A stretch of 63,575 nucleotides of DNA, the filler included, from Atractiella rhizophila (taxonomy: Eukaryota), in NCBI GenBank assembly GCA_021432655.1. It is 5 parts of 4 records of this genome, joined end to end, with 100 filler letters (N's around TTAATTAATTAA, not from the genome) between each part and the next. Parts side by side here need not be neighbours in the genome. Positions count along the whole stretch, not along the records: positions 14,662 to 29,124 come from MU271208.1; 4 more parts are not named here. One strand, written 5' to 3'. The translations under genes and the position numbers were made by a program. Shown here in pieces: positions 8,074-61,531 of this stretch (positions within the stretch are counted from its first letter, which is position 1; every line of letters begins with the position of its first letter). Under the pieces are notes generated by a model that was given only the letters and a program-made list of their open reading frames with translations, was not told where the DNA came from and did not search any database.

Positions 8074-9757
8074 TCAACATTTGACACGCTCTAAAACGAA
8101 GCAAGGTACTAACGCCTGTACGGCTACAAACTCAACGAATTTGGTGTAATACAAATTGCTAAACAATATACCAAAAACCAATGCGTCCTGCCAATGAAAA
8201 CGGCACTGAATCGTCTGTATGGTCATGCCGATTTCAGGTTTGCCCTCTGTTGTCTCATCATGTTCAACTGTGAATCTTGCCAGGCCATTGTTTCCTGCGC
8301 AATGCGTAACTGTTCTTTCACCTCTGCCTCCTATAAGCAATGCCCATCACCATACCATTCTGACAAGAGAAGGAACAAACCCTTTTTACACTCTCCGCAA
8401 GCTCCTTCTCTTTCTTTTTGGCCCAACCGTCAGCTGCGTATTTAGAAATGTGATAGTTTGCCCTCTGTTGTCTCATCATGTTCAACTGTGAATCTTGCCA
8501 GGCCATTGTTTCCTGCGCAATGCGTAACTGTTCTTTCACCTCTGCCTCCTATAAGCAATGTCCATCACCATACCATTCTGACAAGAGAATGAAGAAGGAA
8601 CAAACCCTTTTCACACTCTCCGCAAGCTCCTTCTCCTTCTTTTTGGCCCAACCGTCAGCTGCGTATTTAGAAATGTGATCTGGGTCCTATCAGACAAAAC
8701 GAAACTGTACCAACAATGAAAGGAAGAACATACTGTTCAGGTCATTATTTGTCTTCAAAAGCTCATCGTATTGCGTCTTGAGTGCGTTATGAGTGTGTTG
8801 AAGTGTTGCAAGCTGGTTGTGCAGATTGTGCACTGGTTTTTGCCTGTCGACAAGCTCTCCATGTGCATTTTGGAGCGAGACATGGTCTGCTTTCAATTGA
8901 AGTAGTTCTCTCTCTATCTTCTCTTCAGTACAGATGAAGATCTTGGAATGTCAACGTACCTAGCTGTCGTACTCGGGTGCTATGAAAATCGACTTGCTGT
9001 TGCAGATATATAACATCTGCTGTTGGGGGCGGCGGTTGGAAAGGTAGCGGATGAGCAGGATACATTGAGTGACTCTGAGCTAGCTGATTCTGTAACCCTT
9101 GACATCGCGTTTCTGCCAGCATGCATGGTTAGAGTGGAGATGAAATGCAACTGGAGGACCAACCGAGTTCAAACACTTTCCGTTTACTTCGTTCCGCTTC
9201 CGTTTTAACCTGCAATAATACGTCGTTGTTTTCAGAGCTGCGAGAATTCTCTCGTTTCAATGCATCCTGTAGTTCATTCTCTACCGTATACCATTAATTA
9301 GTCAATCATCAACAAGGTGAAGTGCAAGTGGACCTAGTTCTTCCATCTTCCTCTTCCTTACCGCCACCTCGTTCCTCAAGATTACGATGATTCCTTCCAG
9401 ATTCTCCTGGTTCGCTTTCTTCTCCTCCCATTCCCTCTTCAACCTTTCATACTTTTCTTTGAATATCATATTCTCCTTCTCTCTCGGCTTCGTTGCTCCA
9501 GGCGATCCATTCGCCGAAGGATTATATGAACTTGGGGTCATAGCGGTCTTTGCGTCGTTGAGTTCCTTTTTCAATCGATCGATCTGCACCTGCTTCCTTT
9601 GCGCCTCTCCTGCATCTTGAGTCTTTCTTAACCACTCATTCTCCTCTTTCAATCGTTTCAAATCATGTTGATATCTCTGCTCTGCCCGTTTCCGCTCGGC
9701 CTGCATACGATTGAGTTGCAGGCGCAGTTCTGTATGGCTCGTTGGGGCTGTAGACAT
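8074..9757 (-). CDS. Multi-exon coiled-coil hypothetical protein (ends approximate)
   Basis: Series of E/K/Q/R-rich exons (ORFs 9302-9772, 8925-9122, 8690-8896, 8318-8539) separated by GT-AG introns. Confidence 0.6.
8238..8679. repeat. 218-bp tandem duplication of an exon-intron-exon unit
   Basis: Copies 8238-8454 and 8456-8679 are nearly identical; each contains a minus-strand intron (8331-8380 in copy 1). Confidence 0.95.
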
Positions 9758-14561: not shown

Positions 14562-14661
14562 NNNNNNNNNNNNNNNNNNNNNNNNNNNNNNNNNNNNNNN
14601 NNNNNTTAATTAATTAANNNNNNNNNNNNNNNNNNNNNNNNNNNNNNNNNNNNNNNNNNNN
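14562..14661. other. Artificial contig linker
   Basis: 44 N + TTAATTAATTAA (stops in six frames) + 44 N. Confidence 0.99.
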
Positions 14662-14756
14662 TAACCCTAACCCTAACCCTAACCCTAACCCTAACCCTAA
14701 CCCTAACCCTAACCCTAACCCTAACCCTAACCCTAACCCTAACCCTAACCCTAACC
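14662..14756 (+). repeat. Telomere (TAACCC)15 + TAACC, left chromosome end
   Basis: Perfect C-strand telomeric array at the first base of the contig. Confidence 0.98.
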
Positions 14757-15316: not shown

Positions 15317-15800
15317 TGTTGGAAGATGAGGTGGAGACATGAAGCGTGTTGAGGTGTTTGCCGCGTGTTCCGATGCAGACGCAAACATGTGGCACTTCAC
15401 TGCAAGTCTGGTCCTATAAGGAGGCACCTGGGAATCCATTTTTTTCTTTCCCCAATCACATCATAAAACATTTTATTGTGCTCACTTCTGTGTGATTGGG
15501 GATCTTTTAGCCTCAAGCCAAAAATCTTATTTGGTAGCGAGAGCTCGATTATGGTCCGTGAGCATCATACGAAATGGCAACAGAAGGGAGCACAACGACA
15601 ACAGGTTTTACGTCCGGAAGAAGAGACCCGTTTGGGTCAGGAATATCAACACCCAGAACGGAGGACGTCCCACTACTTACAGCTTCGACTGTGGGAGACT
15701 CCGTGTCATCCTCAGCGAAAGTAGCATCCGAAATCAACATTCCAACAGGATCTATTCAGATGATCGTCGCGAATGAAAAGATCCCCCACTTAATCTGTAA
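15317..15800 (+). mobile_element. Decayed Ty1/Copia 5' LTR, PBS-like site and possible gag start
   Basis: Begins TGTTGGAAGAT; shares AAACATGT..CACTTCAC..TATAAGGA and CCCCAATCACA...GTGATTGGGGAT..TTAG with the Copia LTR at 25298-25608; followed by GATTATGGTCC (15547-15557, similar to the Copia GGTTATGRGCC PBS) and ORF 15574. Confidence 0.6.
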
Positions 15801-16125: not shown

Positions 16126-16670
16126 TGTCAGGTTTGCATCTTACGCAAATCGGCGCCTGTTCGCCACTCTGCGTCCCCCGTCGCCACTCTGCGTCCCCCG
16201 TCGCCACTCTGCGTCCCCCGTCGCCACTCTGCGTCCCCCGTCGCCACTCTGCGTCCCCCGTCGCCACTCTGCGTCCCCCGTCGCCACTCTGCGTCCCCCG
16301 TCGCCACTCTGCGTCCCCCGTCGCCTATTTGCACGCAGTGCAAATCGGCGCCTGGTCGCCGTTCGCCCATTTGCGCCTGCATCACCACTTAGCCCATTTG
16401 TGTCTATTCTCCTCTTATTAACTCCGCGTAATCCCACTGTCACTTTCCCCTTTTAGTTCTCTTACATGTTTCATCTGCTCTCCTCTACACCCTGTGGCAG
16501 TGTTATTCCGCTTGTATATATAGATCAGAGAGTAGTGGAGGTGAACTCAGAGTATTCTCTTAGGTTTATCTCCACTACAGGTTAGTCTTCATGTCATATC
16601 ATGCACTTAGGTTTATCACTACTACAGACGCATCACCCGTCGGCGACCGCACATAGTGTCAGCCCTAACA
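16126..16670 (+). mobile_element. Ty3/Gypsy solo LTR with 5-bp target-site duplication AGATG
   Basis: TGTCAGG...GTGTCAGCCCTAACA termini match the full-length element's LTR; AGATG at 16121-16125 and 16671-16675. Confidence 0.95.
16161..16325 (+). repeat. Minisatellite, 8 perfect copies of TCGCCACTCTGCGTCCCCCG, inside solo-LTR U3
   Basis: Directly counted, no spacers. Confidence 0.97.
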
Positions 16671-24108: not shown

Positions 24109-25290
24109 CTAACCCTTCTCCCACTTCGCCTCCAACAGTTCCCTACTGAATCCAAGAATAGATTGTCTTATGGCGGTCATCACTTCTTCTATGACGTCCT
24201 TGAATGCCAGCGCAGTCGTGAGTTCGAGATGCTCCACAGTCCTCTCTGATCCAATCACCGACTTTCTGGCCTTAATCCACACTGAAAGTTTGTGGAGCGG
24301 CACTCTATCAAGGTTGGGAGAGGAATCGTCCGCGTTTGTCGGGGGTCATAGTGCCAGGCGCGTAAGAGGCTGTTGTCCACAGAAGAACGTAGATGATTGA
24401 CCCATATCGTCCTGTACTTCATGATCAGGCACAATGCTCTCGAAGAGCCGCATGGACATAAACTCCTCTGTTCCCTATCATGCCGTCAGTAATGTCATTC
24501 GTACTGAACAACCACATTTACAGTTCGCTCATTCACCTCAGATGTGTCCTCTCCCACCTTAGCCAACTCCCAGCCTGAGCCACCAAGGAAACCGCGTCCG
24601 TTCTCGTAAAAAAGAATGGATACATCTCTATGAAGGATCGAAACTTGACCATTGGAGGAATCGAAGTATTTCTGATGATCTAAAGCGGCCAGATGGGTAC
24701 GACCTTGGTGTTGTCGAGAAAATTTACACACCTTCAAGGCATCAGCCAGAGTCTGAGCGAAGCACTTCGTGGATGGGCACTCCCACAGCAGACAGCCGAC
24801 CTCGTCCAAAACCAATCGATAGCGACGGAGAGATTTCTCCCCTGCAGAAGCGAGCTGCAAAATTCCAGGGACATCACTATGGGCGACGGGTTTCAGAACG
24901 TGCGGCACCCCTTTCTCTTTCAACAGCTCGTAAATTTCTCCTTCGGCCTTAGCGTATCCGACGTTGCGCCACGTATCTTTCAAGGAAACTTGCTGTTCTT
25001 CGTCGAGGTCTCCATTTGGATCGAATCCTCGAAAGTACCTCGTGTCGCGACCGACTGGGACGTTATGCTGGGAGGTAAACGGTGTCGAAACGTGACGGTG
25101 ACTGTGAAAGCTGGAGCGACTGGTTGTACGTCGGGGGCGTTACTTTTATTTGATTTGACTTGGGCACTAGACTCGATTGTGGAGAGGTCGGAGCCCTGTG
25201 GAAAGTCCCAACTGGTTTTTGGACAATTACCAGAGCAGGTTCTGTACCTGACTTGAGTCTGGTGAAGTTGCAGAAAACGGGGTGAATCCA
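24109..25290 (-). pseudogene. FunK1 fungal-type protein kinase pseudogene
   Basis: ATRGT, KDTWR..AEGEIYELL..GVPHV, YRLVLDEVG, ILHRDVS (NIL deleted), WELAK, ERT-GT.EFMS, HEVQDD; frameshifts. Confidence 0.85.
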
Positions 25291-25297
25291 GGTAGTT

Positions 25298-27140
25298 TGT
25301 AAAGGGAGTGAGAAATTGACTTTCTATCACTTTGCGCTAACAATCCCCAATCACTGATCAGTGAGTACAAATGATATAAATGAATATGTGATTTCAGTAT
25401 AAGTAATCGTACATACCTAACAATCCCCAATCACTTATTAGTGAGTGCAAATGATATAAACAAATATGTGATTGGGGAGAAGAAAAGGAAAGAAAACACA
25501 TCGAGCATCCTTATAAGTCCGGACTAGCGGTGAAGTGCACATGTTTGGTATGGCATCCGGAACGCAATGCAAATAGAACAAACAGATGACATCCACCGAT
25601 CTTCAACACTCCGCCTCACTTCGCCGCTCCGCTTCCTGCTTTATCTGCTTCCCGCTTTATTCACTCCCACATCCTCCGCACCGTATACCATCTCGTGAGC
25701 CCCATGATGGAACAGAAACGCCAATGAGTTGTGGCCGCCAATCCCTTTGTAAGCATGTCAGCGGCTTGTTGACGAGTCGGTATCCAGTGAAGAATAACAG
25801 TGCCAGCATCGACCTTCTCCCGCTTGAAGTGGTAGTGTACAGCGATGTGCTTCGTCTGCGCATGTGCCGTCAGGTGAGAAGCCAGCTGTATCGCTCCTTG
25901 ATTATCGCCCCATATCAGTGTCGGCTGCACTTATGGAAATCCCAAGTCGGAGAACAGCCTGCGCAGCCATACTGCCTCTCGAGTGGCAATGGACATGGCA
26001 ATGTACTCGCCTTCTGTTGAGGAGACAGCCACGCTCAACTGTCGTTTCGATACCCACGAAACCGCCCCACCAGCATTTCAGAACAGTACACCAGAGACAG
26101 ACCGTCATGCCGTAGGGTCCACTGCATGGTCCGCATTGATGAACGTACTCCATGAATCTTTTTCCACCATTGCCGCCCTGCCTGACATAGCCTGTACAGT
26201 GCCTTCCCTAACTCATAGACACCTTTCGGGCGTTCCTCGTCAATGAAACCTGGTGGCTGTTTGACGAACACTTGTTCTTCGAGGTCACCATTCAGAAAAG
26301 CGTTGCTGACGTCGAATTGTCGCCTGATCCATCCCTTTTGGGCTAAGATGGATAGTACTGCTCTGACAGACGCAGTCCGCACGGTTGGTGCCAAAGTCTC
26401 CGTGTAGTCTAGGCCTGCATTTTGCTGATCACCTCATACAACTTGGCGCGCATTGTACTTTATCACCTCCCCTCCCGGATCGTGCTTCACCGTGAGCACC
26501 CACTTGACACCTATTGCCTTTCTCCCCATAGGTAGCTCCTTCAATTCACCTTTCCACGTCCCCATTAACTCGAGCGCCGCTATCTCCACTACCATCACAG
26601 CCAGCCACTTATCATGGTCAGGTCCAGTGATTGCTTGCTTGAACATTGGTTCATTGACACTGCCTATCCAGTAGATTTGTGGTCTTCATAATTGTTCATA
26701 TCCTCTTCAAGCGTAACATTGTAGACTGATGGATTTCGTTTCACCTCCACCGCCAGTTCCCTTGCAGGTGTGACGACTTCATCATATCCATACACTTGAG
26801 AATAGTATGGACCTCGCTCGTGTAGTTTCTTGTAATCCCACATATTTCGTCCTGTACGACGCATCCTTCTCCCCAGCCGTTGTTGTCGTTGCGGGGAGAA
26901 CCATGTGATTTCTTCTTCTTGGACCCTCGCCTTCCATGTGGATGCTTCGATTTGCGCACCTCGATCTTGGACAAATGAGGGGTCCCCTTCTGGAGGTCTT
27001 AGCGTGTCAGTGGTAGCTGGTCCTCCCCCTTGTTCTACTGCCCCTTGAGTGTTGTCTAAGTGCTTTCTTGATGGGGTAGGAGATTCTGGTATGTCAGGTA
27101 TCGTATGGCTTGATGCTCGAACATCGTCTGCTTCCATCTC
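25298..27140 (-). mobile_element. Ty1/Copia remnant: partial RT, RNase H, PPT and 3' LTR (25298-25608)
   Basis: KAIGVKWVL, QFDVSNAFLNGDLEE, SSTEGEY, GDNQGAI, TKHIAVHYHF, ADMLTKGL; purine tract GAAGTGAGGCGGAG, then TGTTGAAG...CCCTTTACA. Confidence 0.9.
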
Positions 27141-28492: not shown

Positions 28493-28856
28493 TGTCAGGT
28501 TTGCATCTTACGCAAATCGGCGCCCGTTCGCCGGATTGCGTCTCCTATCGCCCATTTGCGTTCCCTGCGAATCGGAGCCCGGTCGCCACTGCGTCTCCCG
28601 TCGCCTATTTGCACGCAGTGCAAATCGGCGCCCGTTCGCCCGTTCGCCCATTTGCGCCTACATCACCACTTAGCCCAATTGTGCCTATCCTCCTCTTATT
28701 AACTCCGCGTAATCCCACTGTCACTTCCCCTTCTAGTTCTCTTACATGTTTCATCTGCTCTCCTCTACGCTCTGTGGCAGTGTTATTCCGCTTGTATATA
28801 TAGATCAGAGAGTAGTGGAGGTGACCTCAGAGTATTCTCTTAGGTTTATCTCCACT
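28493..28856 (+). mobile_element. 3'-truncated Gypsy LTR, same subfamily as 16126-16670
   Basis: Near-identical U3, TATA and hairpin; similarity stops at TCTCCACT. Confidence 0.92.
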
Positions 28857-29124
28857 CTAGAACAAGCTAAAAAAACTTGACGAAAAGCCAACACTCCACA
28901 TCTCAAACCTTGTAGGAAAGATTTGCTACCTACGCAAGAAGCGAGCAGCCGCTAAGCGCGCAAAGGTATAGAGGAGTTTGGAGGCTGTAAAAAATTCAAA
29001 CCAAAACTTTAACTCTCTCTCATAAGAAGACAATCCCGACTGTGATACACGCCCAGCGGCTATCCGCTACGCAGACATCACCTCTATTTGGATTCACGTA
29101 CTATACTGTACTTCTGATTGGATC

Positions 29125-29224
29125 NNNNNNNNNNNNNNNNNNNNNNNNNNNNNNNNNNNNNNNNNNNNTTAATTAATTAANNNNNNNNNNNNNNNNNNNN
29201 NNNNNNNNNNNNNNNNNNNNNNNN
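29125..29224. other. Artificial contig linker
   Basis: Same 100-bp linker. Confidence 0.99.
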
Positions 29225-40832: not shown

Positions 40833-41190
40833 AGAAGGAGATCAGTTGTGACAATGTAAGATGGAAAGAAACACTTACAAGTCACGACGCGTTGACTCAT
40901 TCCGATAAGCTGTGATGGGGTAAGTCACAGTTCGAAAGCAAAAAGGATCAGAATGCGTCTAACTCACTAAGGAGTGGCCACGTGCCTGCAGGCATCAGGA
41001 TGAGCCAGAAGGAGATCAGTTGTGAGGATTTAAGAGGGAAAGAAACACTTACAAGTCACGACGCGTTGACTCATTCTGATATGCACTGCGACGGGCAAAT
41101 CGCATTGTTGAAAGAGGCAACAAAAGGGATCAGAACGCGTCTAGCGGGCTAAGGAGCAGCCACGTACCTCTGCAGGCAGTAGGACGAGCC
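40833..41190. repeat. Diverged tandem duplication, 174-bp period
   Basis: Units start at 40833 and 41007 (AGAAGGAGATCAGTTGTG) and share GAAAGAAACACTTACAAGTCACGACGCGTTGACTCATTC. Confidence 0.9.
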
Positions 41191-42635: not shown

Positions 42636-43076
42636 TGTCAGGCTTGCCCCTACGCATTACCGAAATGCACCTTCTGGAGTCACGTGACCTACTTTACCAT
42701 GCATAGGATCACGCACCTGCCCATCGCCGCTTTGCTCACGTTCACGCCGATCGCCGCTTTCCCCTGTCTCACACGAATCGCCGCTCAGCAAACCTTAAAC
42801 ATTTCGCCGGTCTGTATCATCTCCATTATTACCTTTATTGTCCTTTCTCACTTGTACTGCTTAGTATGTCTTATTTCCGAGTATTCCCTTTATTGCTTTC
42901 CTGATCCAACTATCTTACATGTTTCAAGAAACGTATGTTACAGTTTATGGCAGTGCCCTTACATATATATATATACATCGAGATGTAGTGGTGGTGACCT
43001 CAGAGTATTCTCTTAGGTTTACCTCCACTACAGACGCATCGCCTATCGGCGACCGCACATAGTGTCAGCCCTAACA
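42636..43076 (+). repeat. 5' LTR
   Basis: Identical by eye to 50874-51314; TA run 42962-42975; GTCACGTGAC palindrome at 42679. Confidence 0.98.
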
Positions 43077-43078
43077 GA

Positions 43079-43088
43079 AGAATACTCT
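43079..43088 (+). promoter_or_regulatory. Self-priming primer-binding site (Tf1/sushi type)
   Basis: AGAATACTCT is the exact reverse complement of LTR 43002-43011 AGAGTATTCT; no TGG tRNA-type PBS. Confidence 0.85.
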
Positions 43089-43117
43089 CTCTCATTTTCA
43101 AAACCAAAGTTAAAAAA

Positions 43118-44415
43118 ATGTCGGAGGTTTGGGGAGATATGGAAACGCGCGAACCGCCGACCAGCGAGGAACGCATCCAGCACTTAGAAAGGATGTTCCA
43201 AACTCTACACCTCACAACTGAAAAACAATTCAAAAAACTCGAACAAGACCTCATAACAAGCTTCAACCAACAAAATGCGCAAACCTCCCAGAATGCGAAC
43301 GAAATTGCGCAACTGAGGTCCGACGTCCAAAACACAAATGACCGAATTTTACAATTGCTAGACTCCAGACTACCCCTCCTAGAGATAGTGGGACCACTTC
43401 CCCCTTTTTATCGCGAACAGACCCAATACCTCAGGCTTACCCTTCTCCCTCTATACCCCAAACTGCCCAAGTTGCACCATATGCAGGTATCAAACTTGCC
43501 CCACCTTCAATCTTCAAAGGAGTACCCAACACAGCTCCGACATTTTTACGCGAAATTTACGTCTACACGTCTACTGTTCCAGGCCAATTCCCGACCGAAA
43601 AATCGAAAATCCTATTTACCCTTTCTTACATGAAAGAAGGAGATGCGGAAAAATTCGCCGCTGGGATTTTGCGCCGACTTGTCGAAAACGAGGAACAAAT
43701 TTCGTGGGAACAATTTTTGTCGGAGTTCAAAGCGCGTTTCTGCAAGACAGACCACAAGCTCATTGCGCAGACAAAAATATCATCCCTCCAACAAAAAGGG
43801 AACCTAGAAACCTACATCATCAAGTTTGAAGAATTGGCAAATCAAGCTGATTTTGATGATGAAGCCCTCATTTTTTTCTTCAAACGGGGACTCAATCCTG
43901 CCCTACACCTCAAAGTAACCCAAGGGGAGTTCCCAAAATCGCTGGAAGACTGGAAAGAAAAATCTCGGCGAATTGATGCGGAAGAATCTGCTCATTCAAC
44001 CTTCTTTCAAAACATCCCATCGGCGAAAGACGGACCACAAAATACATTTTCTGCAAAAAGAGACAGCTCAAAATCCTCAAAGCACAGAGAGAACAGAACG
44101 CCAGTATCGTATCGACCGAGCGCCGCATTGTCACCGGCCGCCGATCCGCCACCCAATGCCGCTCCACACGCTCATAGGGCCAAAGACCCCGATGACATGG
44201 AAGTTGACGCGACAAAGTCTAGACCTCCCCGTTGCAGGCGATGCCAGAAGATAGGACACCGAGAAAGAGAGTGTAGAACGATTATGAGCAAGGAGCAATA
44301 TCTTCGGGCCCAAGGAGAATATTTTGATTCGAAAATGATACATCTCGGACAATTCGCCGACCAGTCGCCGAAAACGAGTGCTACCCAATCGAAAGATCTT
44401 GAGGAGGATTTTTAG
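43118..44415 (+). CDS. gag: Gag with CCHC zinc knuckle, frame discontinuity near 43318-43380
   Basis: Second frame, open from 43342, has KLAPPSIFKG..KSKILFTLSYMKEGDA, DDMEVDA and CRRCQKIGHREREC; ATG 43118 is in another frame. Confidence 0.9.
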
Positions 44416-44486
44416 GACGGCGGTGGGTGGAAGAAGTGTCCCCATCGCCGAATTGCAATTCATTTACGTCACATAAAATCACTTCC
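44406..44486 (+). promoter_or_regulatory. -1 ribosomal frameshift signal between gag and pol
   Basis: G GAT TTT before the gag stop, 5-nt spacer, 10-bp stem 44418-44427/44441-44450; pol is in the -1 frame. Confidence 0.85.
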
Positions 44487-47400
44487 AACAAGATGCCGCC
44501 CAGCACAGTATTCCCCCCACGAGAACAAGACCCCCCATTCCCGAAGTTGCGTTTTCCCTCCTGGAGACAAAGATGCGCAGAAGTCGCAAAAATGTATGAC
44601 AAAGTCCACCTACGCTCGACTACAGCATCCCTCGTCAGTTCGAAGACGAAGCTCAGAACCGCATTCCACCATCCACATTCCCATCGCCGACACGCCACAT
44701 CGGCGCTCGTCGACAGCGGCGCAACTACTTCTTTCATTTCTCCAAAACTCGTTTCTGCATACAACCTACCTGTCACTCAACTTCCCTCCCCAGTACCTGT
44801 TTATAACATCGACGGATCCCTCAATCAAGGAGGATCCATCCACTCTGTTACTTACTTGCCCATTTCGATCGCCGCTCACCATGAAGTTTGGCAATTCGCT
44901 GTAGCGGAGTTAGGGACTGTCGACATGATTTTAGGCCACGACTGGCTAAGACACCACAACCCAGAGATCAACTGGGACTCAGGGAAAGTTGAGTTCTCTC
45001 GCTGCCCTACCAGTTGCAATGCAGATGACGTGTCTACCACTCGCGAAAAATTCCCGCCATCATCTACCTCGATACGAGCCGCTATGACAAAATCGCAGAA
45101 ACTGGCGAAAGACGCAGCGGCGATGAGACCAAAAAATGTCGTCGAAATACCAACGCAAATCGCCGATTTTGCAGACATCTTCGACGACGAAAAATTCAAA
45201 ACTTCTCTTCCTCCCCGACATCCTTGGGATCACGCGATCAACCTCATACCCGAAGCACGACCATATGCGGGACCGGTCTACCCCTTGAAAAGAGACGAAC
45301 AAGCGGCGCTCGACCAATTCATTGACGCCGAACTAAGCGCCGGCCGTATACGTCCTAGCACAGGTGAACATGGAGCCTCAGTTTTCTTCACGCACAAAAA
45401 AGACTCATCTGAACTTCGTCCCCTTTTCGATTATCGGAAGCTGAACGAAGCCACAGTCAAAGACAAGACCCCACTCCCCATTCAGGCTGACCTCTTTTCC
45501 ATGGTCTCAGGTAAAAAGTTCTTCAGCAAGATTGATCTGAGGAAAGGGTTCAACAACGTTCGTATCAAAGAAGGAGACGAACACAAAGCGGCGTTTCGCA
45601 CAAATCGAGGACTTTTCGAACCATTGGTAATGTATTTCGGACTCTGCAACTCACCGGCGACTTTCCAAGCTTTCCTGAACTCTATTTTCCGCACTATGAT
45701 CGCCACTGCGTTCATCTTCATATACATAGACGACATCCTAATTGCGACAGAAACTGAAGAAGAACACTGGGAACGCGTTCGACAAGTTTGTCAAGTTTTA
45801 CGCGAAAATGGGCTTTATGTCAACTTACAGAAATGTGTCTGGTGTCAAAGCGAAGTAGAGTATCTAGGTTTGATCATTACCAGCAGAGGGATCGAACCGG
45901 ATCCAGTAAAAGTTGCAGGAGTGATGGATTGGCCGGAACCGAAGAACATGAAGGAAGTCCAAATGTTCCTCGGTTTCGCTAATTTCTATCGCCGCTTTTG
46001 CGACAGATTTAGTCACATCGCAAGACCTTTATATGAACTGACCAAAAAGGGGATTTCCTGGGTCTGGGGGGTAGATGAACGACGTTCGTTCGCCGCTCTG
46101 AAGCAGCTCATGACTTCTGCGCCCGTTTTGGCACATCCCGAACAAATAGGACGATTTTTGCTTGAAGTCGATGCGTCAAATTTCGCGACAGGCGCTGTTT
46201 TGTCGCAAATGAAGCCAGATGGGAAGTTTCATCCTCTCGGTTTCGTATCAAAATCGCTCGACGCTGCCCAGAGGAACTATGACACCTACGACAAAGAAAT
46301 GCTCGCAATTATGCGAGGACTGCAAGAATGGAGACACCTTCTTCAAGGTACTGATGAGCCATTTCTGATCTTGACCGATCACAAAAATCTTGAGTATTTC
46401 AGGATGCCACAAAAGTTGAATCGGCGACAGGCACGCTGGATCACCGAACTTGCATCTTTCAACTTCACTCTTTTACACCGTCCTGGACGAAACTCCGCAA
46501 AACCAGATGCGCTCAGTCGGCGACCGGATCACAAACCGGCGACTTGCGACAACTTTGACGTAGTATTACTCCCAGAACGTTTTTTCAACACGGATCGTAT
46601 CACGATCAACGCGACTGGGAGCGCAGTTGCGCTCACTAGACAAATGTCAGAGTTGAGTATACTGGAACGTGTGAAAAAGGTACCTGAACGGGAAGAACAA
46701 GTAGTCAAAGCCTTGAGAGAGATCCTAGACGAACCAGTCGACGCAATTCGCCGACGGGAGTGGCAAGAAGTTGACGGCGCTGTCTACTTTCGAGGGAAAC
46801 TTTACATTCCCCGAGACGACGAAATTCGCCGCTCGATTTTGCAAGACCTGCACGATTCGCAAATCGCCGGTCATCCAGGTGTAAAATCAACGACGGCTCT
46901 CATAAAAAGGTACTACTGGTGGCCGGGTATGGCGCATTACGTTCGCCGCTATGTCGGCGCCTGTCACACTTGCCACAGAACAAAAAACTTTCCTTCCCCA
47001 CCTGTCGGGTTTTTGCAACCAAATGACATTCCCACGCGTCGATGGCAAATTGTCAGCATGGACTTGGTTGGACCACTCCCAGAATCTGGGGGGTTTGACA
47101 CGATTTTCGTCATAGTAGACAGACTCTCAAAACGCACCCATCTCATCCCCACCCATTCGACGATGGATGCAGAAGGCCTTGCAAGACTTTTTCGCGATCA
47201 CGTATGGAAGCTACATGGACTTTTCGATGTCGCAATTTTTGATCGAGGCAAAGAGTTTGTGTCCAAATTCACATCCGCGCTTTTTCGCCTATTGGGTATC
47301 AAAGGCTCACCATCGACAGCCTATCACCCGCAAAGTGATGGTCAGACTGAACGCATGAACCAAGAGGTTGAACAATATTTGCGCATTTTCTGCAATCACC

Positions 47401-48206
47401 TTCAAGATAATTGGGTAGAAGGACTTCCCAACGCAGAATTTGCGCTCAACAATCGCGTCAGTTCGGCGACGGGCGTAACTCCATTTTCGCTCGATTGCGG
47501 TCAACATCCCCGCATGGCCTTTGAACCCATCTCCGACGAGGACGTTCCCGCGGCGGCGCAATTCGTCGAAAAGATGCAAATCGCCGACCGGGAAGCACAA
47601 GCGGCACTCGAGCAAGCAGCAGATCTCATGGCAAAACATTATGACAGAAAGCGCGCACCGGCGCCCGAATATCATGTCGGCGATTTCGTCTGGTTGAGCG
47701 CGAAAAACATCAAATCGACGAGACCTGTCAAGAAGTTAGACGACAAATGGCATGGCCCTTTTCGTGTTTTGCAAGTTTTGGGTCCCCTCAACCTTAAACT
47801 CGAGTTGCCATCCTCATGGAAGATACATCCAGTGTTCCATGTAGGTCTAATACGAAAAGTCAACGAAGACGACATCCCGGGCAGAGTCCAGTTGCCCAAA
47901 CCACCTCCAGAATTGGTGAACGGAATTGAAGAATGGGAAGTGGAGAAAATTGTCGATGGAAAATGGTTCGGTACCCGAAATAGAGTTTTCAAATATCGCG
48001 TTCGATACAAAGGGTATTCACCATCTGAGGACGAGTGGATCAACATCGCAGATCTAGAAAATTCGCAGGACGCTATAAAAGACTATCACACTGCACACCC
48101 TCTCGCAGTTCATCCCAATTCCATACCGAACTCCGCAAAAAATCGCCCAAATGCACGTTTTCGTAACCTTCGACGAAAACACGCTGAAGGGTCTTCCTCA
48201 CTTTAA
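44427..48206 (+). CDS. pol: Pol: protease, RT, RNase H, integrase, chromodomain; intact
   Basis: LVDSGA, DYRKLN, YIDDIL, VDASNF, HHCC, SMDLV/FDRG/QTERMN, GPF, WEVEKIV..YRVRYKGY..DEW. Confidence 0.99.
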   Translation: MEEVSPSPNCNSFTSHKITSNKMPPSTVFPPREQDPPFPKLRFPSWRQRCAEVAKMYDKVHLRSTTASLVSSKTKLRTAFHHPHSHRRHATSALVDSGATTSFISPKLVSAYNLPVTQLPSPVPVYNIDGSLNQGGSIHSVTYLPISIAAHHEVWQFAVAELGTVDMILGHDWLRHHNPEINWDSGKVEFSRCPTSCNADDVSTTREKFPPSSTSIRAAMTKSQKLAKDAAAMRPKNVVEIPTQIADFADIFDDEKFKTSLPPRHPWDHAINLIPEARPYAGPVYPLKRDEQAALDQFIDAELSAGRIRPSTGEHGASVFFTHKKDSSELRPLFDYRKLNEATVKDKTPLPIQADLFSMVSGKKFFSKIDLRKGFNNVRIKEGDEHKAAFRTNRGLFEPLVMYFGLCNSPATFQAFLNSIFRTMIATAFIFIYIDDILIATETEEEHWERVRQVCQVLRENGLYVNLQKCVWCQSEVEYLGLIITSRGIEPDPVKVAGVMDWPEPKNMKEVQMFLGFANFYRRFCDRFSHIARPLYELTKKGISWVWGVDERRSFAALKQLMTSAPVLAHPEQIGRFLLEVDASNFATGAVLSQMKPDGKFHPLGFVSKSLDAAQRNYDTYDKEMLAIMRGLQEWRHLLQGTDEPFLILTDHKNLEYFRMPQKLNRRQARWITELASFNFTLLHRPGRNSAKPDALSRRPDHKPATCDNFDVVLLPERFFNTDRITINATGSAVALTRQMSELSILERVKKVPEREEQVVKALREILDEPVDAIRRREWQEVDGAVYFRGKLYIPRDDEIRRSILQDLHDSQIAGHPGVKSTTALIKRYYWWPGMAHYVRRYVGACHTCHRTKNFPSPPVGFLQPNDIPTRRWQIVSMDLVGPLPESGGFDTIFVIVDRLSKRTHLIPTHSTMDAEGLARLFRDHVWKLHGLFDVAIFDRGKEFVSKFTSALFRLLGIKGSPSTAYHPQSDGQTERMNQEVEQYLRIFCNHLQDNWVEGLPNAEFALNNRVSSATGVTPFSLDCGQHPRMAFEPISDEDVPAAAQFVEKMQIADREAQAALEQAADLMAKHYDRKRAPAPEYHVGDFVWLSAKNIKSTRPVKKLDDKWHGPFRVLQVLGPLNLKLELPSSWKIHPVFHVGLIRKVNEDDIPGRVQLPKPPPELVNGIEEWEVEKIVDGKWFGTRNRVFKYRVRYKGYSPSEDEWINIADLENSQDAIKDYHTAHPLAVHPNSIPNSAKNRPNARFRNLRRKHAEGSSSL

Positions 48207-48560
48207 GGGGTCCAACACCCCTATATGCCTTGCCGGGTGAAATCCTAGTCTTTGAGACTTAGGTCAAGGCAAGGCGCCGACTTGCTCCTCAACGGGCAAG
48301 TCGGCGACTTGGTCGTGGGTGAGTCCATTCGTCGCCCGTCAAAGACAAATGCTCATTGCGTTCTCGCACCATCACCAATGTCGCATTTACGAAAATTGTC
48401 CTCAATCGCGAGGTCCCCTCCCCCTCACTTTAAGAGGTCCTACTCCTCTATATGCCTCGCTGGGTGAATCCCTAGTCACACTGTTGAACATAGGTCTAAG
48501 CGAGGCGCCGGTCTGTTCCTCAACGGACAGATCGGCGACCGGTTTGTCGGTGAGTTACTC
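48196..48560 (+). ncRNA. Two copies (227-bp period) of a candidate structured cis-RNA element after the pol stop
   Basis: Three helices with compensatory substitutions between copies; loops conserved. Confidence 0.65.
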
Positions 48561-49264
48561 ACCCCATTATCACAAACGGTTGCTTACTGCACCAAAAACA
48601 ACACCGGTCAAACTTCAAAAAATCCCTCAATTGCGAGGTACACGATGACTTCCCCTCATCCTACACTCTGTTTTGGTTTTGATGATTATTGTTTCCTGTT
48701 TTTGCTTTTACATTTTGCTTCCCATCCTTGTTCGCTCGACAACACATTCTTCCACAAAGAAGACAGACCAGCGACGAGCACGCAAATCGCCGACACGTTA
48801 TACTGCGCGTTGTGTCCACGAACGCGTGGCCCGGGCCTATTTGGTTGCGAGCTCCATAATAAGCTTGGGTAGCTAGTGGGAGGAACACCTGAGGGTCCTC
48901 CCCTAGACAGGGGAGTGTGAGTCCTGCATCACCCACTTGGCCATTGCTCTCCTCACTCACCACAATGCCTTATGCCACCATGACACGATTTACACTTGTC
49001 GCCGCCTGGCGATTCGCCGCTGTTACGGAGGCGCAAAACGAATACATTTCAGAGATCAAAATCACCACTCTGGACTGACTCCTCACTATCGCTGCTGCTC
49101 GAAGAAGAAACGGAATGTGCATCATAATTGGAATTGTCATAGGCCTCTTGGGCTAAAGAAGGATTTAAGTCGCCCAGTCGAAACTCAATTTCGCCGATAC
49201 GACGTATTTTCTGCAACTGGCGATGGGTCAGGTGCCCTACGATGCCTAAACAACATCTAGATAG

Positions 49265-50749
49265 TCAGACAGATCGCCGAAAAACGGATGAACTCACCCT
49301 ACCAGTCACATCGGCGATCACACCTTCCACAGCCGAATCTTCACTAGCCCCATCCTCCGCGGCTCGATCGTCCTGCCTCCTTTTATACAATTCCATCTGC
49401 AACTCAGCGGCCTTCAGGGCGTCCGCCACCGCTTGCGCATTCAATTTGGCGGCAGCTAACATGGTTTGCGCGAAGTCCAGGCTGAATGCCTCAGAGTACA
49501 ATCGGGCGGCGCTCAGCAACGACTGCGAAGGAGAATCCTCGTCGACGTCCGAAATATTCTCGTAATTGCTTTCGATGAGAGCCGAAGGACGTTTTTTCCC
49601 GTCGCCGATACGTTTAGGATGGAATGAAGTCGACATTACGACCAACATTGAGAGTTCCCGCAAATAACCCAATGGCAAAACCTCACACCTTTTTCGCAAA
49701 CTATGACAACGCGAACAGACCCGTCCGAACGCGGTTGCGACATACCCAGCAGAGAAGTCGCACACCTGCGAGTCGTTGTCACCCTTGGCTTTCTTTTTCG
49801 CCGCTTTGACAGGCGCCGCTCGAACCTTTCCAGTACAATTGCTACAGCGCTGTGTCCCGATGCTTGCTAACGTGGGAAGAATGCGCGCATTCGCCCGAGG
49901 AGTCGTGATAACCAATTCGAGATCCAGCTCACCCAGATTGATGTTCGCCGCAGCGTGGGAATAAGCCTCACGAGTACCCGGCCAGAAGTACCGGTATTTC
50001 GCCGCATCCAATTCCTTGTCGCCGATTCGAACTTTCCCGTCGCGCACTACGAATTCGGCGACCGGCGCACCGGCGAACGGATTTCGATCCCCCAACGCTG
50101 CAGGCAAAACGAAAGTAGTTGCAGTAACCAGGTGGTCGGACAAGGTCCTCACGACCCCGACCTCGGATCCCTTCGTCGCCGAAATCGACTTTTGAGCGCG
50201 CAAATTTTCCTCCGCCGCTCGACGTTTAATTTCAAGCGCCGCCCGTTTTCGCTCCTCTCCTTCCTTAGCCAAGCGTTTTTTCGTGTCAGACAGGAAAAGA
50301 TCTCGTTCTTTCCTTCGCAAAACAGGGTCGCCGTTCGCCGACTCGGAGGGCTGATACCCGAGTTTCACCGCTTCCTCCTCGATGAGCGCCGCTTGTTCGG
50401 CCCAAAGACGAAGTTCATCACGCAATACCTGCAGACTTTCCACAGGCATCCGCAGAGGAAATGACAGAACCCGCTCATCACCGAAACCTTTAACGGCCTC
50501 GTAAGCCATTCGCACCTTCCCATCGCCGACGAGTTACCACACAATATACGAGACAAGAAAACTCACCTCTGCTTGCACCTCATCACAAAATTTGACATAC
50601 AGAGGGTAGCACCTTTTCCCCCACTCCAGCACATCGGCGAATCGCCCGAAGTTCACCTCCTTCGCCTTCTCCACGTCCCAGTAAATGGTACTCTCTTTCC
50701 TGTCCTTGTTCGCCAGAACGAAGTCGAAGAGTTGCGCATCGGTCGACAT
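49265..50749 (-). CDS. Antisense accessory gene inside the Gypsy, 2 exons, about 477 aa, Zn2Cys6-like cluster and coiled coils
   Basis: Exon 1 50749-50567 (61 codons), phase-0 intron 50566-50516 (GTGAGT...GTAAC...AAG), exon 2 50515-49265; C-x2-C-x24-C-x14-C-x2-C-x6-C. Confidence 0.85.
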
Positions 50750-50873
50750 TTTTGCAAGAATGGAAGCAGGGTGATGGTGGTAGAACTGGAAAAATTTTTC
50801 GCCCAAGCTAGCCGCAAACCTTAACTTTAAAATTCCGTGACTCACGTACACGAGTCAGTAATTTGGGGGGTGT

Positions 50874-51314
50874 TGTCAGGCTTGCCCCTACGCATTACCG
50901 AAATGCACCTTCTGGAGTCACGTGACCTACTTTACCATGCATAGGATCACGCACCTGCCCATCGCCGCTTTGCTCACGTTCACGCCGATCGCCGCTTTCC
51001 CCTGTCTCACACGAATCGCCGCTCAGCAAACCTTAAACATTTCGCCGGTCTGTATCATCTCCATTATTACCTTTATTGTCCTTTCTCACTTGTACTGCTT
51101 AGTATGTCTTATTTCCGAGTATTCCCTTTATTGCTTTCCTGATCCAACTATCTTACATGTTTCAAGAAACGTATGTTACAGTTTATGGCAGTGCCCTTAC
51201 ATATATATATATACATCGAGATGTAGTGGTGGTGACCTCAGAGTATTCTCTTAGGTTTACCTCCACTACAGACGCATCGCCTATCGGCGACCGCACATAG
51301 TGTCAGCCCTAACA
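50874..51314 (+). repeat. 3' LTR
   Basis: Identical by eye to the 5' LTR; preceded by GGGGGGTGT. Confidence 0.98.
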
Positions 51315-52241: not shown

Positions 52242-55200
52242 ATGGATGCCGAGCTTGACCTTCTGCGTTTTGAGGTAGGTGTTGGCTGCTCAAAAACCTT
52301 AGAATCGTAATATAAATGATAGGAGAGGACAGAAACTAACAACTATGGCCCGCTGTGCCGACATCCCCATCTAGAGATACCCATTCCACATACACAACCG
52401 GAGGACGAAAACATCGATGAGGAGAATGATGTAGAACCGGACGAGGCAGTTGGTCTGCATGGAGAAGAGCTGAGGGAGAGAGAGTTGGAGTTTGCCATAG
52501 AAGCGGAGGTGGAGTTGGATGCCATAGAAGCAAGTGAAGAATCGGAATTTGGAAACGGAAGGAAGCTTGAGGGAGTGAACCTGCTACAGGAGAGTGAACG
52601 GTAAGTAAAGTTTTGTTTTAGCGGTAAAACTAACAACAACTTGCAGAATGGATAGAACTGCATCAGGATTGCTGGAGATCCAAGCATCCGATGTCATTCA
52701 TGTCCTCAAAGTTGACCACAACCCCGGACCACGCCCTCAGTATATCCCTGATCCTCCATCTCCTCTCTCATGCGAAGATGAATGGACATTACGACATCTA
52801 CGAGCGTGGTTAGGGACTGTCGGAGCAAAGCAGAAAGCATACGAAGACCATGCAGCTAATCTTCGAGCATGTGGAAAGGAGGTTGGATCCCTTCACCGTG
52901 CAAGAAAGCTATTGTGCCGGCTGTCACGATTGAGCCCACAGTGGTTTGACCAGTGCGTTGATACGTGTATGGCCTTTACAGGGGAGTACGCGGATCCATC
53001 TTTCGATCACTGCATCGTCTGCTTTCAACCTCGGTTCACAAGTGGAAAGGAGCGCCGGACTGGTTCGCGGATTCCTGGTTTGCGGGTTCCTAGACGGCGT
53101 TTTGCATATCTTAGCTTCTTGCCTCGGATACGAGCACTCTTTGAAAATGAAGAGACGGCACGTACCATAGGAGACTTTGGGAAGATGTTGAAAGAGAGTG
53201 TTGAGGTTGTGGACAAGGCGCAAAAGCAGTATAGAGACTGGTACGATGGAGAGTGCCTTCACAACCTTCATAAATCGAACCTGAAAGTCCTCGACGATCC
53301 ACGCGAAACCGGCTTTTACGCCTCGAGCGATGGCGCGTCTCTCCAACTTCGCAAAGCGGAAAGCAATGCATGGGTCTTCGTCCTCACCGCTTCTTGCTAC
53401 CCTGCCAAGACCCGGTATCGAAAGGAGCACTTATTCCTCCTCTGCATTATTCCCGGCCCTCATAACCCCAAAAGAATTGCCACTTTTTTCCACCAGTTCT
53501 TCCACGAGATCACTGTTGCCTCGCTGGGCCACTGGCTGTTCGACCGAGCAAAGGAGGAGTGGTTGTTATGGAAGGCATGGCTATTGGGGAAGCTGGGAGA
53601 TCTTCATGGATCGACATACTTCAGTGGTGGCACAGGTCATATAGGAGCATGCGGATGCCGTTTCTGTAAACTTCAAGGTCAGCTACGAGCAAAAGGAATA
53701 GTACCACATTTTTTTCCTTGGAAGACGGTCCCTTGGGTTGATGACAAGGGCAACTGGTATCTTCCAGTCAACAACAAGCGACCGAAACAGTACGACCCCT
53801 ACGATGAAGATCTTCTTCGAACACCAGAGGATTACTACTGGGCTCTCAGGCAGCTCAACGAAGCGGGTTCAGAGGCCGCAAGAAAGCAGGTTTACAAGGA
53901 CACAGGAATCAAACGGCCCTCTGACTGCTCTATCCTTCCTACATTCATCGACATCTCCACTTTCCATCCTCTCGACATCTCTCATCTCACGCTTGCAGAC
54001 CTCGTAGCTCTCGTTTTCAAGATTTGGATTGGGAGCATGCCGGCCAAAGATCCGGATTGTGAGCCGCTACTCCTTACGCAGGACCAGCAGATCATGATAG
54101 GAGAGATGGTTCAAAACGCTGGTTCTGACCTCCCCGTTCTCTTGTCGGCGACTGCTCCACGGAATATCCATGAATACAAGAACACGCATTACAAAATGAA
54201 CGAGTGGTGGGCATGGGTCGACTGGTACTCCCTCCCCATCCTTATTCATCTTGGAGTGAACAAAGAAGTCCTCAACAATTGGGACACCTTCATTCAAGGC
54301 TTCCGGTTGGCTTGGCAGCACGAATGTTCTGAGGCAGAGGTCAAAGCCATGCAACTTTACTTCAACGAATGGGCTATCGGTTTCGAGCGCCTGTACGTCC
54401 GAGACGTTGCTGAAAATATTGATCGCACAACTATGAACTTTCACTCTGTCGCCCATCTCCCCCTTAATACGCGCAACCATGGCCCCTCGATTCTCATCTC
54501 CCAACTTCCTTGTGAGCGCATTATTGGTCAGAGCAAGGAATCTATTACTCAGAAGGCGAAGTATTTCGAGAACATGATGCAGAACATGATCCACAGGGAG
54601 CAACTCAACATTGTCGACATTCTCTACCCTTCCAATGAGTATAACTTTGGCTTCACCTCTTCAAAGACTCAGCGGGAACGTAATGCGAAGTTTGGTCTCT
54701 CTTTGGTAGGACCAAAGTGGTCCTCTTTCCCCTACACCAGAGTTCAAGGAGAAGAGAAGGAGGATTGGGTTAAGGAACTCATCACCCTCAAGGACTACTG
54801 TACGACCTGCGGCCTTGAAATTCCCAACGATGATGCAGAATTTGAAGAGATGGCTGCTGCGTGGACTCGGTGGGGAAAGGCTACATTGGAGAATGGTGAT
54901 CTCATCTGCTCAAGACGTCAGGAGAGAGGAAATGTAAAAGTTACTCGGTCGCACAGGCGCATGCAGGCATGTGGTTGGATTCAGAAAAGAGAACAATCTA
55001 ATGAGAGCTTTGCAGGCATTCTCGACGGATGGTCAACCTATTTTCTGCGAAGTCCACTGCTTCCTTCAGGTACCTCTACAACCGCAGTCCAAATGGAGTG
55101 TCAAACGAAGTGTTGCGGTTGTTCAGTACTATGATGAAGTCAAGACCCCATACCGGAGTGTGATCCAGACTCGATTCAACGGTGCATGGGGAATCGTTCC

Positions 55201-56742: not shown

Positions 56743-57100
56743 TGTCAGGCTTTGTGAATCCACACCCAGTTGCCTGTTCGCCTATTTGCACTCTCATCAC
56801 TGCTCTGTATCTCCTGTCACCCATTTGTATTCTGTGCAAGTTGGCGCCTCTTTACACTTCTATCGCAACTATGCTTTTCCTTTTTGGTTCTCTTACATGT
56901 TTCATATACTCTCCTCTACACTTTGTAGCAGTGTGATTCCGCTTGGATATAGATCGGAGATAAGTGGAGGTGACCTTAGAGTGTTCTCTTAGGTTTATCT
57001 CCACTACAGGTTAGTCTTCTCATGTCATATCATGCACTTAGGTTTATCTCCACTACAGACGCATCACCCATTGGTGAGTGTATATAATGTCAGCCCTAAC
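56743..57100 (+). mobile_element. Decayed Gypsy LTR, intron-containing variant
   Basis: TGTCAGGC...TGTCAGCCCTAAC; hairpin and 22-bp direct repeat as in 16126-16670. Confidence 0.9.
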
Positions 57101-61431: not shown

Positions 61432-61531
61432 NNNNNNNNNNNNNNNNNNNNNNNNNNNNNNNNNNNNNNNNNNNNTTAATTAATTAANNNNNNNNNNNNN
61501 NNNNNNNNNNNNNNNNNNNNNNNNNNNNNNN
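61432..61531. other. Artificial contig linker
   Basis: Same 100-bp linker. Confidence 0.99.

Follow-up and report, generated by a model that had tools for sequence, protein, structure and literature searches.

A Ty1/Copia retrotransposon of Atractiella rhizophila carries, inside one long terminal repeat (LTR), two near-identical copies of a leader segment, separated by a short spacer and set in the register of an intron. The element lies on the minus strand of a 63,575-nucleotide (nt) stretch of the assembly GCA_021432655.1, which joins five parts of four genome records with filler letters between them and is referred to here as the window. The feature is the end of a 3′ LTR spanning the repeat (R) and unique 5′ (U5) regions: a unique 3′ region (U3) bearing TATAAG is followed by segment X, a 23-nt spacer, a second copy of the segment, X′, and 18-20 nt of U5. 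The 80 nt formed by spacer and X′ are tentatively read as a present or former intron of the LTR leader, whose 3′ part would be a copy of exon 1 made by strand transfer during reverse transcription; the probability of this reading is put at about 45%. A Gypsy family in the same window bears an insert of the same layout, and the edge of its duplicate coincides with the end of the cDNA that a self-priming element is expected to transfer.

Anatomy of the duplicated leader

The sequence-only reading had laid out, on the minus strand, TATAAG, a CT-rich tract, the 57-nt segment X, a GTATGT donor and a second copy matching at 52 of 57 positions, with both copies closing in TTAG and a branch-like CTGAT within the second. 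Direct reading of the sequence, a repeat search and blastn bear this out to the base (Table 1). The repeat search returns two copies of 57 nt, 91% identical at a spacing of 80, and blastn aligns them with E=3.7e-17, while Tandem Repeats Finder does not report the duplication because the spacer interrupts it. No further copy of X′ was found in the window at up to three mismatches. Alignments of the spacer with the sequence 5′ of X and with the U5 tail do not rise above shuffles. X begins with an A preceded by a C, and transcription probably starts at this position.

Table 1. Positions of the Copia and Gypsy features in the window (a slash separates the two nucleotides that flank a site)
Feature	Position	Strand	Remarks
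Copia pol remnant (RT/RNase H), frameshifted	26685-25661	-	RVT_2, tblastn; broken ORFs
pol stop codon	25663-25661	-	sequence reading
Purine-rich tract (polypurine-tract-like)	25657-25609	-	between pol stop codon and LTR start; sequence reading
3′ LTR	25608 to ~25317	-	start TGTTGAAG; end ..AAAGTCA inferred at ~25319-25317
TATAAG	25515-25510	-	42 nt 5′ of X start (39 nt in the 15317 LTR); direct reading
CT-rich tract	~25496-25474	-	ends CCCC (25477-25474)
X	25473-25417	-	57 nt, TTAG at end; presumptive first 57 nt of transcript (R)
Spacer	25416-25394	-	23 nt, GTATGT at start, ACTGA at end
X′	25393-25337	-	second X copy, 52/57 identical, TTAG at end, without CCCC arm
CTGAT (branch-like)	25361-25357	-	inside X′, 21 nt before X′ end
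U5 tail	25336-25317	-	18-20 nt after X′; then ~100 nt at single-copy depth
Related Copia 5′ LTR	15317-15534	+	218 nt; TATAAG, single X, 21-nt tail, then TGGTAGCG (15535-)
Gypsy LTR insert	16581-16627	+	47 nt, GTTAGT...ACTACAG; last 22 nt repeat preceding 22 nt (16559-16580)
Same Gypsy insert, second copy	57010-57058		
Insert-free Gypsy LTR sites	43033/43034 and 51271/51272		
Intact Gypsy chromovirus, apparently young	42636-51314		LTRs 100% identical over 300 nt compared
Self-priming site	43079-43088	+	2 nt past LTR end; 10-nt perfect complement of LTR AGAGTATTCT (43002-43011)

Assignment of the LTR to a Ty1/Copia element, as had been claimed, is supported by what lies upstream on the same strand. 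The Pfam reverse transcriptase (RT) domain RVT_2 matches at 26433-26038 (E=6.5e-27), and a tblastn search with the Copia polyprotein P0003 aligns amino acids (aa) 915-1417 of its 1437 with 26643-25724 and with nothing else. No gag, protease or integrase was detected upstream of the pol remnant, whose open reading frames (ORFs) are broken. The element reads as a dead, 5′-truncated Ty1/Copia remnant and not as a complete element.

The LTR starts with TG, and its start aligns with that of the LTR at 15317; its end, ..GTCA at 25317, is placed from contig ends only. On these limits its length is 290-292 nt, of which the insert makes up 80, leaving about 210-212 nt. Searches for a terminal inverted repeat of the LTR and for homology of its U5 returned nothing above shuffles. 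No second copy that could be the matching 5′ LTR occurs in the window, and the combination of a 5′ LTR with a target-site duplication was not found there.

The LTR at 15317 offers a comparison with a single X. It opens with TGTTGGAAG, the same start as the target LTR, and carries TATAAG 39 nt before X, X once, 21 nt more and then TGGTAGCG, a sequence of the type that serves Ty1/Copia elements as an initiator-tRNA primer-binding site. Its kinship with the target is real (73% identity over 143 nt by blastn, E=1.2e-10), and the homology ends at the TTAG that closes X. It had been presented as an intron-minus variant; it belongs, however, to a different, diverged LTR family and not to that of the target.

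The intron-like register

All local direct repeats of the window with a period of 25-200 nt were gathered in a census of 15 rows, which amount to about 5-6 independent events. Five rows come from the telomere-type array at 14662-14756, five from a 20-nt array and a related motif in Gypsy U3, two from one 174-nt-period duplication, two from the Gypsy LTR insert and one from the Copia insert. The arrangement AG/GT...AG, in which a 5′ splice site would follow the first copy and an AG would close the second, is found only in the Copia and Gypsy insert events, each time in the sense orientation of the element, and in 0 of the 12 remaining rows in either orientation. About 1 in 256 tests would give it by chance. 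Two hits among 5-6 independent events make a chance origin of the layout unlikely, and the earlier argument against a mere chance duplication holds to this extent.

Host introns for comparison were taken from one gene, encoding a serine carboxypeptidase (Peptidase_S10), whose 11 introns were defined by exact spliced translation and whose exons are 97-100% identical to an NCBI protein from Atractiella rhizophila. This gene lies at 61545-63538 on the minus strand, all of its introns are short, and assembly gaps lie just beyond it at 61432-61531. The introns measure 49-109 nt (median 55); GTNNGT opens 6 of the 11, G stands at +5 in seven and T at +6 in nine, seven contain CTGA, and the 3′ ends are CAG (5), TAG (3) and AAG (3). 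The Copia candidate, with 80 nt, GTATGT, two CTGA motifs and a TAG end, fits this set. Its terminal GT and AG, its branch-like site and its length within the host range are those expected of an intron, and removal of the 80 nt by splicing is predicted from these signals.

The register also bears on a simpler account, a one-off local duplication with filler sequence, produced in a dead copy by DNA repair or by slippage at a hairpin palindrome and unrelated to splicing or to reverse transcription. X does hold an inverted repeat of 10-11 bp, inverted repeats of this kind are break-prone, and the host copy is degenerate. Yet the 5 mismatches among the 57 positions of X and X′ argue against a recent duplication, and this account leaves the GT...AG register unexplained, although the sense AG/GT...AG arrangement recurs in two of about 5-6 events against an expectation of about 1/256. 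We regard such a one-off event as quite unlikely. A pure tandem duplication of an AGGT segment was considered separately and rejected: no repeat of the spacer follows X′ or precedes X, and the single-X relative reads TTAG/CC.

A sibling layout in a self-priming Gypsy family

The same layout had been claimed for an unrelated LTR superfamily, and it is present in a Gypsy family of the window, where two LTRs carry the insert and two others lack it at the exact boundary (Table 1). Presence and absence of the insert are therefore polymorphic among Gypsy copies. For Copia, plus and minus variants within one family are not supported, since the single-X LTR is only 73% identical and one further contig, described below, is ambiguous. 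Both insert-free sites belong to the intact chromovirus, which has a gag ORF at 43342-44412 and a 1267-aa pol comprising protease, RT, RNase H, integrase, an SH3_Tf2-1 domain and a chromodomain.

The primer of this family can be read from its sequence. The motif of the self-priming site has five matches where 0.06 are expected; four lie in LTRs on the plus strand and one at the self-priming site on the minus strand. In the retrotransposon Tf1, according to one report, the primer-binding site pairs with the 11 nt that open the RNA, and the RNase H cleavage site lies between nt 11 and nt 12 (PMC7175516). The Gypsy family bears the signature of such a Tf1-like self-primer, and the complement fixes the position at which its RNA starts.

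Counted from this start, the duplicate has a telling left edge. The conserved part of Gypsy X′ is 22 nt long and matches its own X at 20/22 positions in the LTR at 16.5 kilobases (kb) and at 22/22 in the LTR at 57 kb. It begins at nt 11 of the inferred RNA, and the preceding 12 nt match at 7/12. By the Tf1 rule, minus-strand strong-stop cDNA would have its 3′ end at most 1 nt from the left edge of the duplicate, a match that points to minus-strand transfer as either the maker or the keeper of the duplicate. Between the two LTRs that carry the insert, identity is 75% in the tail of U3, 81% in U5, 92% in the insert itself and 97% in X. Because insert and X are so much better conserved than the U3 tail, the insert was inherited through retrotransposition and did not arise separately at each locus. 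Spacer lengths are close in the two superfamilies, 23 nt in Copia and 25-27 nt in Gypsy.

Several other observations concern this Gypsy family. In a further LTR at 28493-28857, homology is lost 4 nt before the end of X (..CTCCACT/CTAG..), at the same boundary where the insert starts in other copies; unrelated sequence follows, with a run of seven A's 14 nt on. The LTR at 16.1 kb (16161-16340) holds about 8-9 copies of a 20-nt U3 unit, which is unexpanded in the 97%-identical LTR at 28.5 kb (28560-28640). In the intact element, about 2.6 kb separate the end of pol from the 3′ LTR (48196-50873). This interval contains duplications with a period of 227-231 nt at 48196-48555 and an antisense ORF of 422 aa at 49268-50533 without a Pfam match.

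A proposed strand-transfer route to an LTR intron

Minus-strand strong-stop cDNA ends with a copy of the 5′ end of the RNA, here presumably X. In a tRNA-primed Copia element this cDNA should run to the cap, and the start of X, 42 nt past the TATA box, is a plausible transcription start. The source of the cDNA would be a spliced or insert-free leader in which X is joined directly to U5. Instead of landing on X of the acceptor RNA, the cDNA would be joined or extended 23 nt beyond it. The spacer would then provide a 5′ splice site (TTAG/GTATGT) and X′ a 3′ splice site, closing in the same TTAG as X, and excision of the 80 nt would restore the single-X leader. Such an origin of the Copia duplicate, followed by inheritance of the insert within the Copia family, would account for both edges of the duplicate, for the sense orientation, and for the recurrence in two superfamilies with a common replication scheme. 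No strategy on the part of the element is needed, and a by-product of reverse transcription explains the layout equally well.

Several findings weigh against a strand-transfer-written intron. The Copia insert was inspected in one copy, the locus in the window, and this copy is a dead fragment. Its only relative in the window, the LTR at 15317, has X once, followed by CC and not by GT. The region of the putative 3′ splice site in X′ is G-rich, and an AG occurs 3-4 nt after CTGAT. A search of the window for the origin of the spacer matched only the spacer itself at up to three mismatches, and the Gypsy spacer likewise matched nothing elsewhere in the window at this setting. The Gypsy insert (47-49 nt, GTTAGT, CAG) lacks CTGA and sits at the lower length limit of the host introns, which it fits less well than its Copia counterpart. 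The sole intact young element, the Gypsy at 42636-51314, is without the insert, and the insert is therefore not needed for activity. Finally, the depth profile across the Copia LTR is predicted equally well by two abutting LTR ends.

The reading matters because retroelements copy themselves via RNA, so that the introns they carry should vanish whenever spliced RNA is reverse-transcribed. An LTR-leader intron rebuilt by strand transfer would, if real, give mobile elements a novel means of retaining introns and reveal a concrete route from reverse transcription to introns. It would also be a natural counterpart to engineered split-intron retroviral vectors, which exist. If the layout is a replication by-product and nothing else, it would mark the 5′ end of strong-stop cDNA in genomic fossils, and transcription starts and priming modes could then be read from DNA. 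This argument rests on the layout of the sequence in one window.

Copy number and the possibility of abutting LTR ends

Contigs from runs X1 and X2, both of one sample, and from run X3, of a relative, were placed on the window at a likeness of at least 80%. Exact contigs of the single-copy flank (depth 78 in X1 and 159 in X2) stop at 25348; at a word length of 31 letters, repeated sequence therefore starts at about 25319. Summed depth in X1 is 78 in the bin 25220-25303, 4053 in 25304-25387, 11952 in 25388-25471, 8837 in 25472-25555 and 5389 in 25556-25639, and it is 170-1630 over the pol region. The contig stops and the jump in depth place the limits of the LTR at 25608 and about 25317 and identify a multi-copy family. 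Its copy number is high: the LTR reaches tens of copy-equivalents or more, several times the level of the internal part.

Mean depths per bin in run X2 are 19168 over X plus spacer, 19124 over U3 and 7148 where X′ and the U5 tail lie. An ambiguous X2 contig connects 25375 directly with 25500 and lacks the spacer. Among the contig pieces listed (24 of 353, with 18 of 132 loose ends; 367 letter differences fall outside the list), one or two fit both X and X′ and none skips exactly 80 nt. The last of these results favors the one-off duplication described above. A weaker point stands against that account: a single-copy spacer would force the X2 mean of X to about 29000, and no sampled position of the LTR exceeds 19678. 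The bin means weakly suggest that the spacer is multi-copy, which fits the strand-transfer reading and a second alternative alike.

This alternative holds that two LTR ends abut. A complete LTR at 25608-25394, with the spacer as its ordinary 23-nt U5, would have inserted into an older related LTR just upstream of the X of that LTR; X′ and the tail (25393-25317) would be what remains of the older copy, and GTATGT would be a coincidence. The resulting length of 215 nt is close to the 218 nt of the 15317 LTR with its 21-nt tail after X. Homology between the 15317 LTR and the target ends exactly at TTAG, as if the tail after X were free to vary between subfamilies. The X2 means, nearly equal for X plus spacer and for U3 and lower for the X′ bin, are those expected of two subfamilies, and the contig lacking the spacer agrees with this picture. 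Nested elements are also abundant in the window. However, no similarity links the spacer to the U5 tail (1953 of 2000 shuffles do equally well), in spite of the 91% identity of X with X′. Two coincidences would be required, an insertion exactly at the presumptive transcription start and a spacer that happens to open with GTATGT. The window contains neither the U3 of the older LTR nor a 5′ LTR, although the element is truncated and an assembly gap occupies 29125-29224. The Gypsy case would go unexplained, because its spacer is no LTR end and is common to two diverged copies. Abutting LTR ends are an unlikely explanation, though one to be taken seriously.

The surroundings of the Copia LTR have features of their own. 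The flank at 24800-25219 is itself repeated, at 8-28 times the single-copy summed depth in X1, and is found in the relative (X3). ORFs with a weak Pkinase_fungal match lie in this flank at 24498-25139. Single-copy depth near the LTR is confined to about 25220-25318.

A conserved hairpin and the promoter-module alternative

X and the CCCC upstream of it form a predicted hairpin with arms at 25477-25468 and 25434-25425 (-19.5 kcal/mol, z=-4.6, 0 of 200 shuffles as stable). The 15317 LTR has a matching stem (-21.2 kcal/mol, z about -4.6, again 0/200). Stems of 10-13 bp are alike in the two Copia LTRs, and their loops differ. X′ alone folds no better than shuffles, at -7.3 kcal/mol with 171 of 200 as stable. 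The hairpin arms (25468-25477 and 25425-25434 in the target; 15450-15460 and 15491-15501 in the relative) contain CCAAT and ATTGG. The palindrome could serve as a DNA site for a CCAAT-binding factor, besides or instead of forming an RNA stem.

These motifs raise the thought that the duplication multiplies a transcription-factor site, that is, that X is a promoter module containing an inverted CCAAT/ATTGG pair. Repeats within LTRs are common, as in the repeated enhancers of many LTRs, and the 20-nt array in Gypsy U3 is an example within the window. On the other hand, X lies downstream of the TATA box, and the 18-20 nt of LTR after X′ leave no room for R and U5. The CCAAT arm is lost in X′, and the GT...AG register again goes unexplained. 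A promoter module is very improbable, and a reading of the duplication as an enhancer repeat was rejected on position. U3 enhancer repeats stand upstream of the TATA box, usually head-to-tail, with no spacer and no splice-site register. Like the present case, they are local duplications inside an LTR that copies inherit; in contrast, the Copia X/X′ pair lies downstream of the TATA box, has a spacer between its copies and is set in a splice-site register.

Searches beyond the window returned no relatives of these segments. A metagenome scan with the hairpin arms hit one locus, an unrelated palindrome, and a scan of viral contigs with 18 nt of the end of X hit six loci, all in unrelated coding sequence. 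With regard to an introner-like element, which would recur as one insert at many unrelated loci, the spacer occurs once in the window and both scans gave chance matches.

Could such an intron survive retrotransposition?

A bolder version of the strand-transfer reading supposes that an intron in R is heritable in spite of splicing, because strong-stop cDNA landing on X′ would rebuild it, and that Copia and Gypsy converged on this arrangement. The intron would have as its 3′ part a copy of exon 1 that reaches to the 3′ splice site, near the 3′ end of the RNA. Should R stop close to where X′ stops, the intron copy at the 3′ end of the RNA would have almost no downstream exon and would stay unspliced. 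A cDNA made from the spliced 5′ leader could then land on X′ and not on X, and the spacer and X′ would be rewritten into both new LTRs. Recurrent landings of this kind would keep X′ similar to X only from the end of the cDNA onward; such a pattern is seen in the self-priming Gypsy LTRs, with their sharp edge at nt 11/12.

In a basidiomycete yeast, one study reports, intron removal strongly lowers mRNA accumulation for most of the genes tested (PMC3744415). By analogy, a spliced and well-expressed mRNA may benefit the element, although that study is not evidence for the Atractiella host. The bolder version would give a mechanism to the "convergent strategy" that the sequence-only reading had proposed. 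That proposal is upheld in part, in that the layout occurs in both Copia and Gypsy; it is undercut by the intact young Gypsy without the insert and by the equal fit of a simple by-product. A self-renewing intron of this kind is, on the whole, unlikely.

Relation to known systems

Introns are known to arise by tandem genomic duplication, as described in two papers (PMC3265369, PMC4974935). In the cases these describe, as in the Copia LTR, a 5′ splice site follows the first copy, an AG ends the second, and splicing removes one period to leave an unduplicated RNA. The Copia case differs in that its 5′ splice site lies in a 23-nt spacer that is not duplicated and in that the single-X relative has no AGGT. 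It also lies in an LTR leader and not in a coding exon, and its splicing is predicted from sequence.

Strong-stop transfer, as set out in PMC7175516, shares with the present layout the position of the left edge, since the duplicate begins where the cDNA ends (at the presumptive cap in Copia and at nt 11/12 in Gypsy). In a normal transfer the cDNA meets R in register and no duplication results, whereas the landing proposed here would occur 23-27 nt beyond R. A literature search covering titles and the beginnings of abstracts found no description of a strong-stop transfer product with splice signals. The same search returned nothing comparable to an intron inside a retrotransposon LTR, which is not proof of absence.

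Some retroviruses, the deltaretroviruses, have a splice donor inside the LTR. Their donor likewise lies within R or at its end. The viral intron ends far downstream, unlike the Copia candidate, which has both of its ends in the LTR and repeats exon 1.

Other features of the window

The telomere-type (TAACCC)n array at 14662-14756 directly follows two runs of N (14562-14605 and 14618-14661) and could either mark a place where scaffolds were joined at a chromosome end or be a telomeric tract in an internal position. An open frame of 841 aa on the plus strand, at 52609-55131, has no Pfam match at E≤1e-4. Local duplications occur at 8238-8679, in units of about 218-225 nt that are 98% identical, and at 40833-41084, where the unit is 174 nt and the identity 92%.

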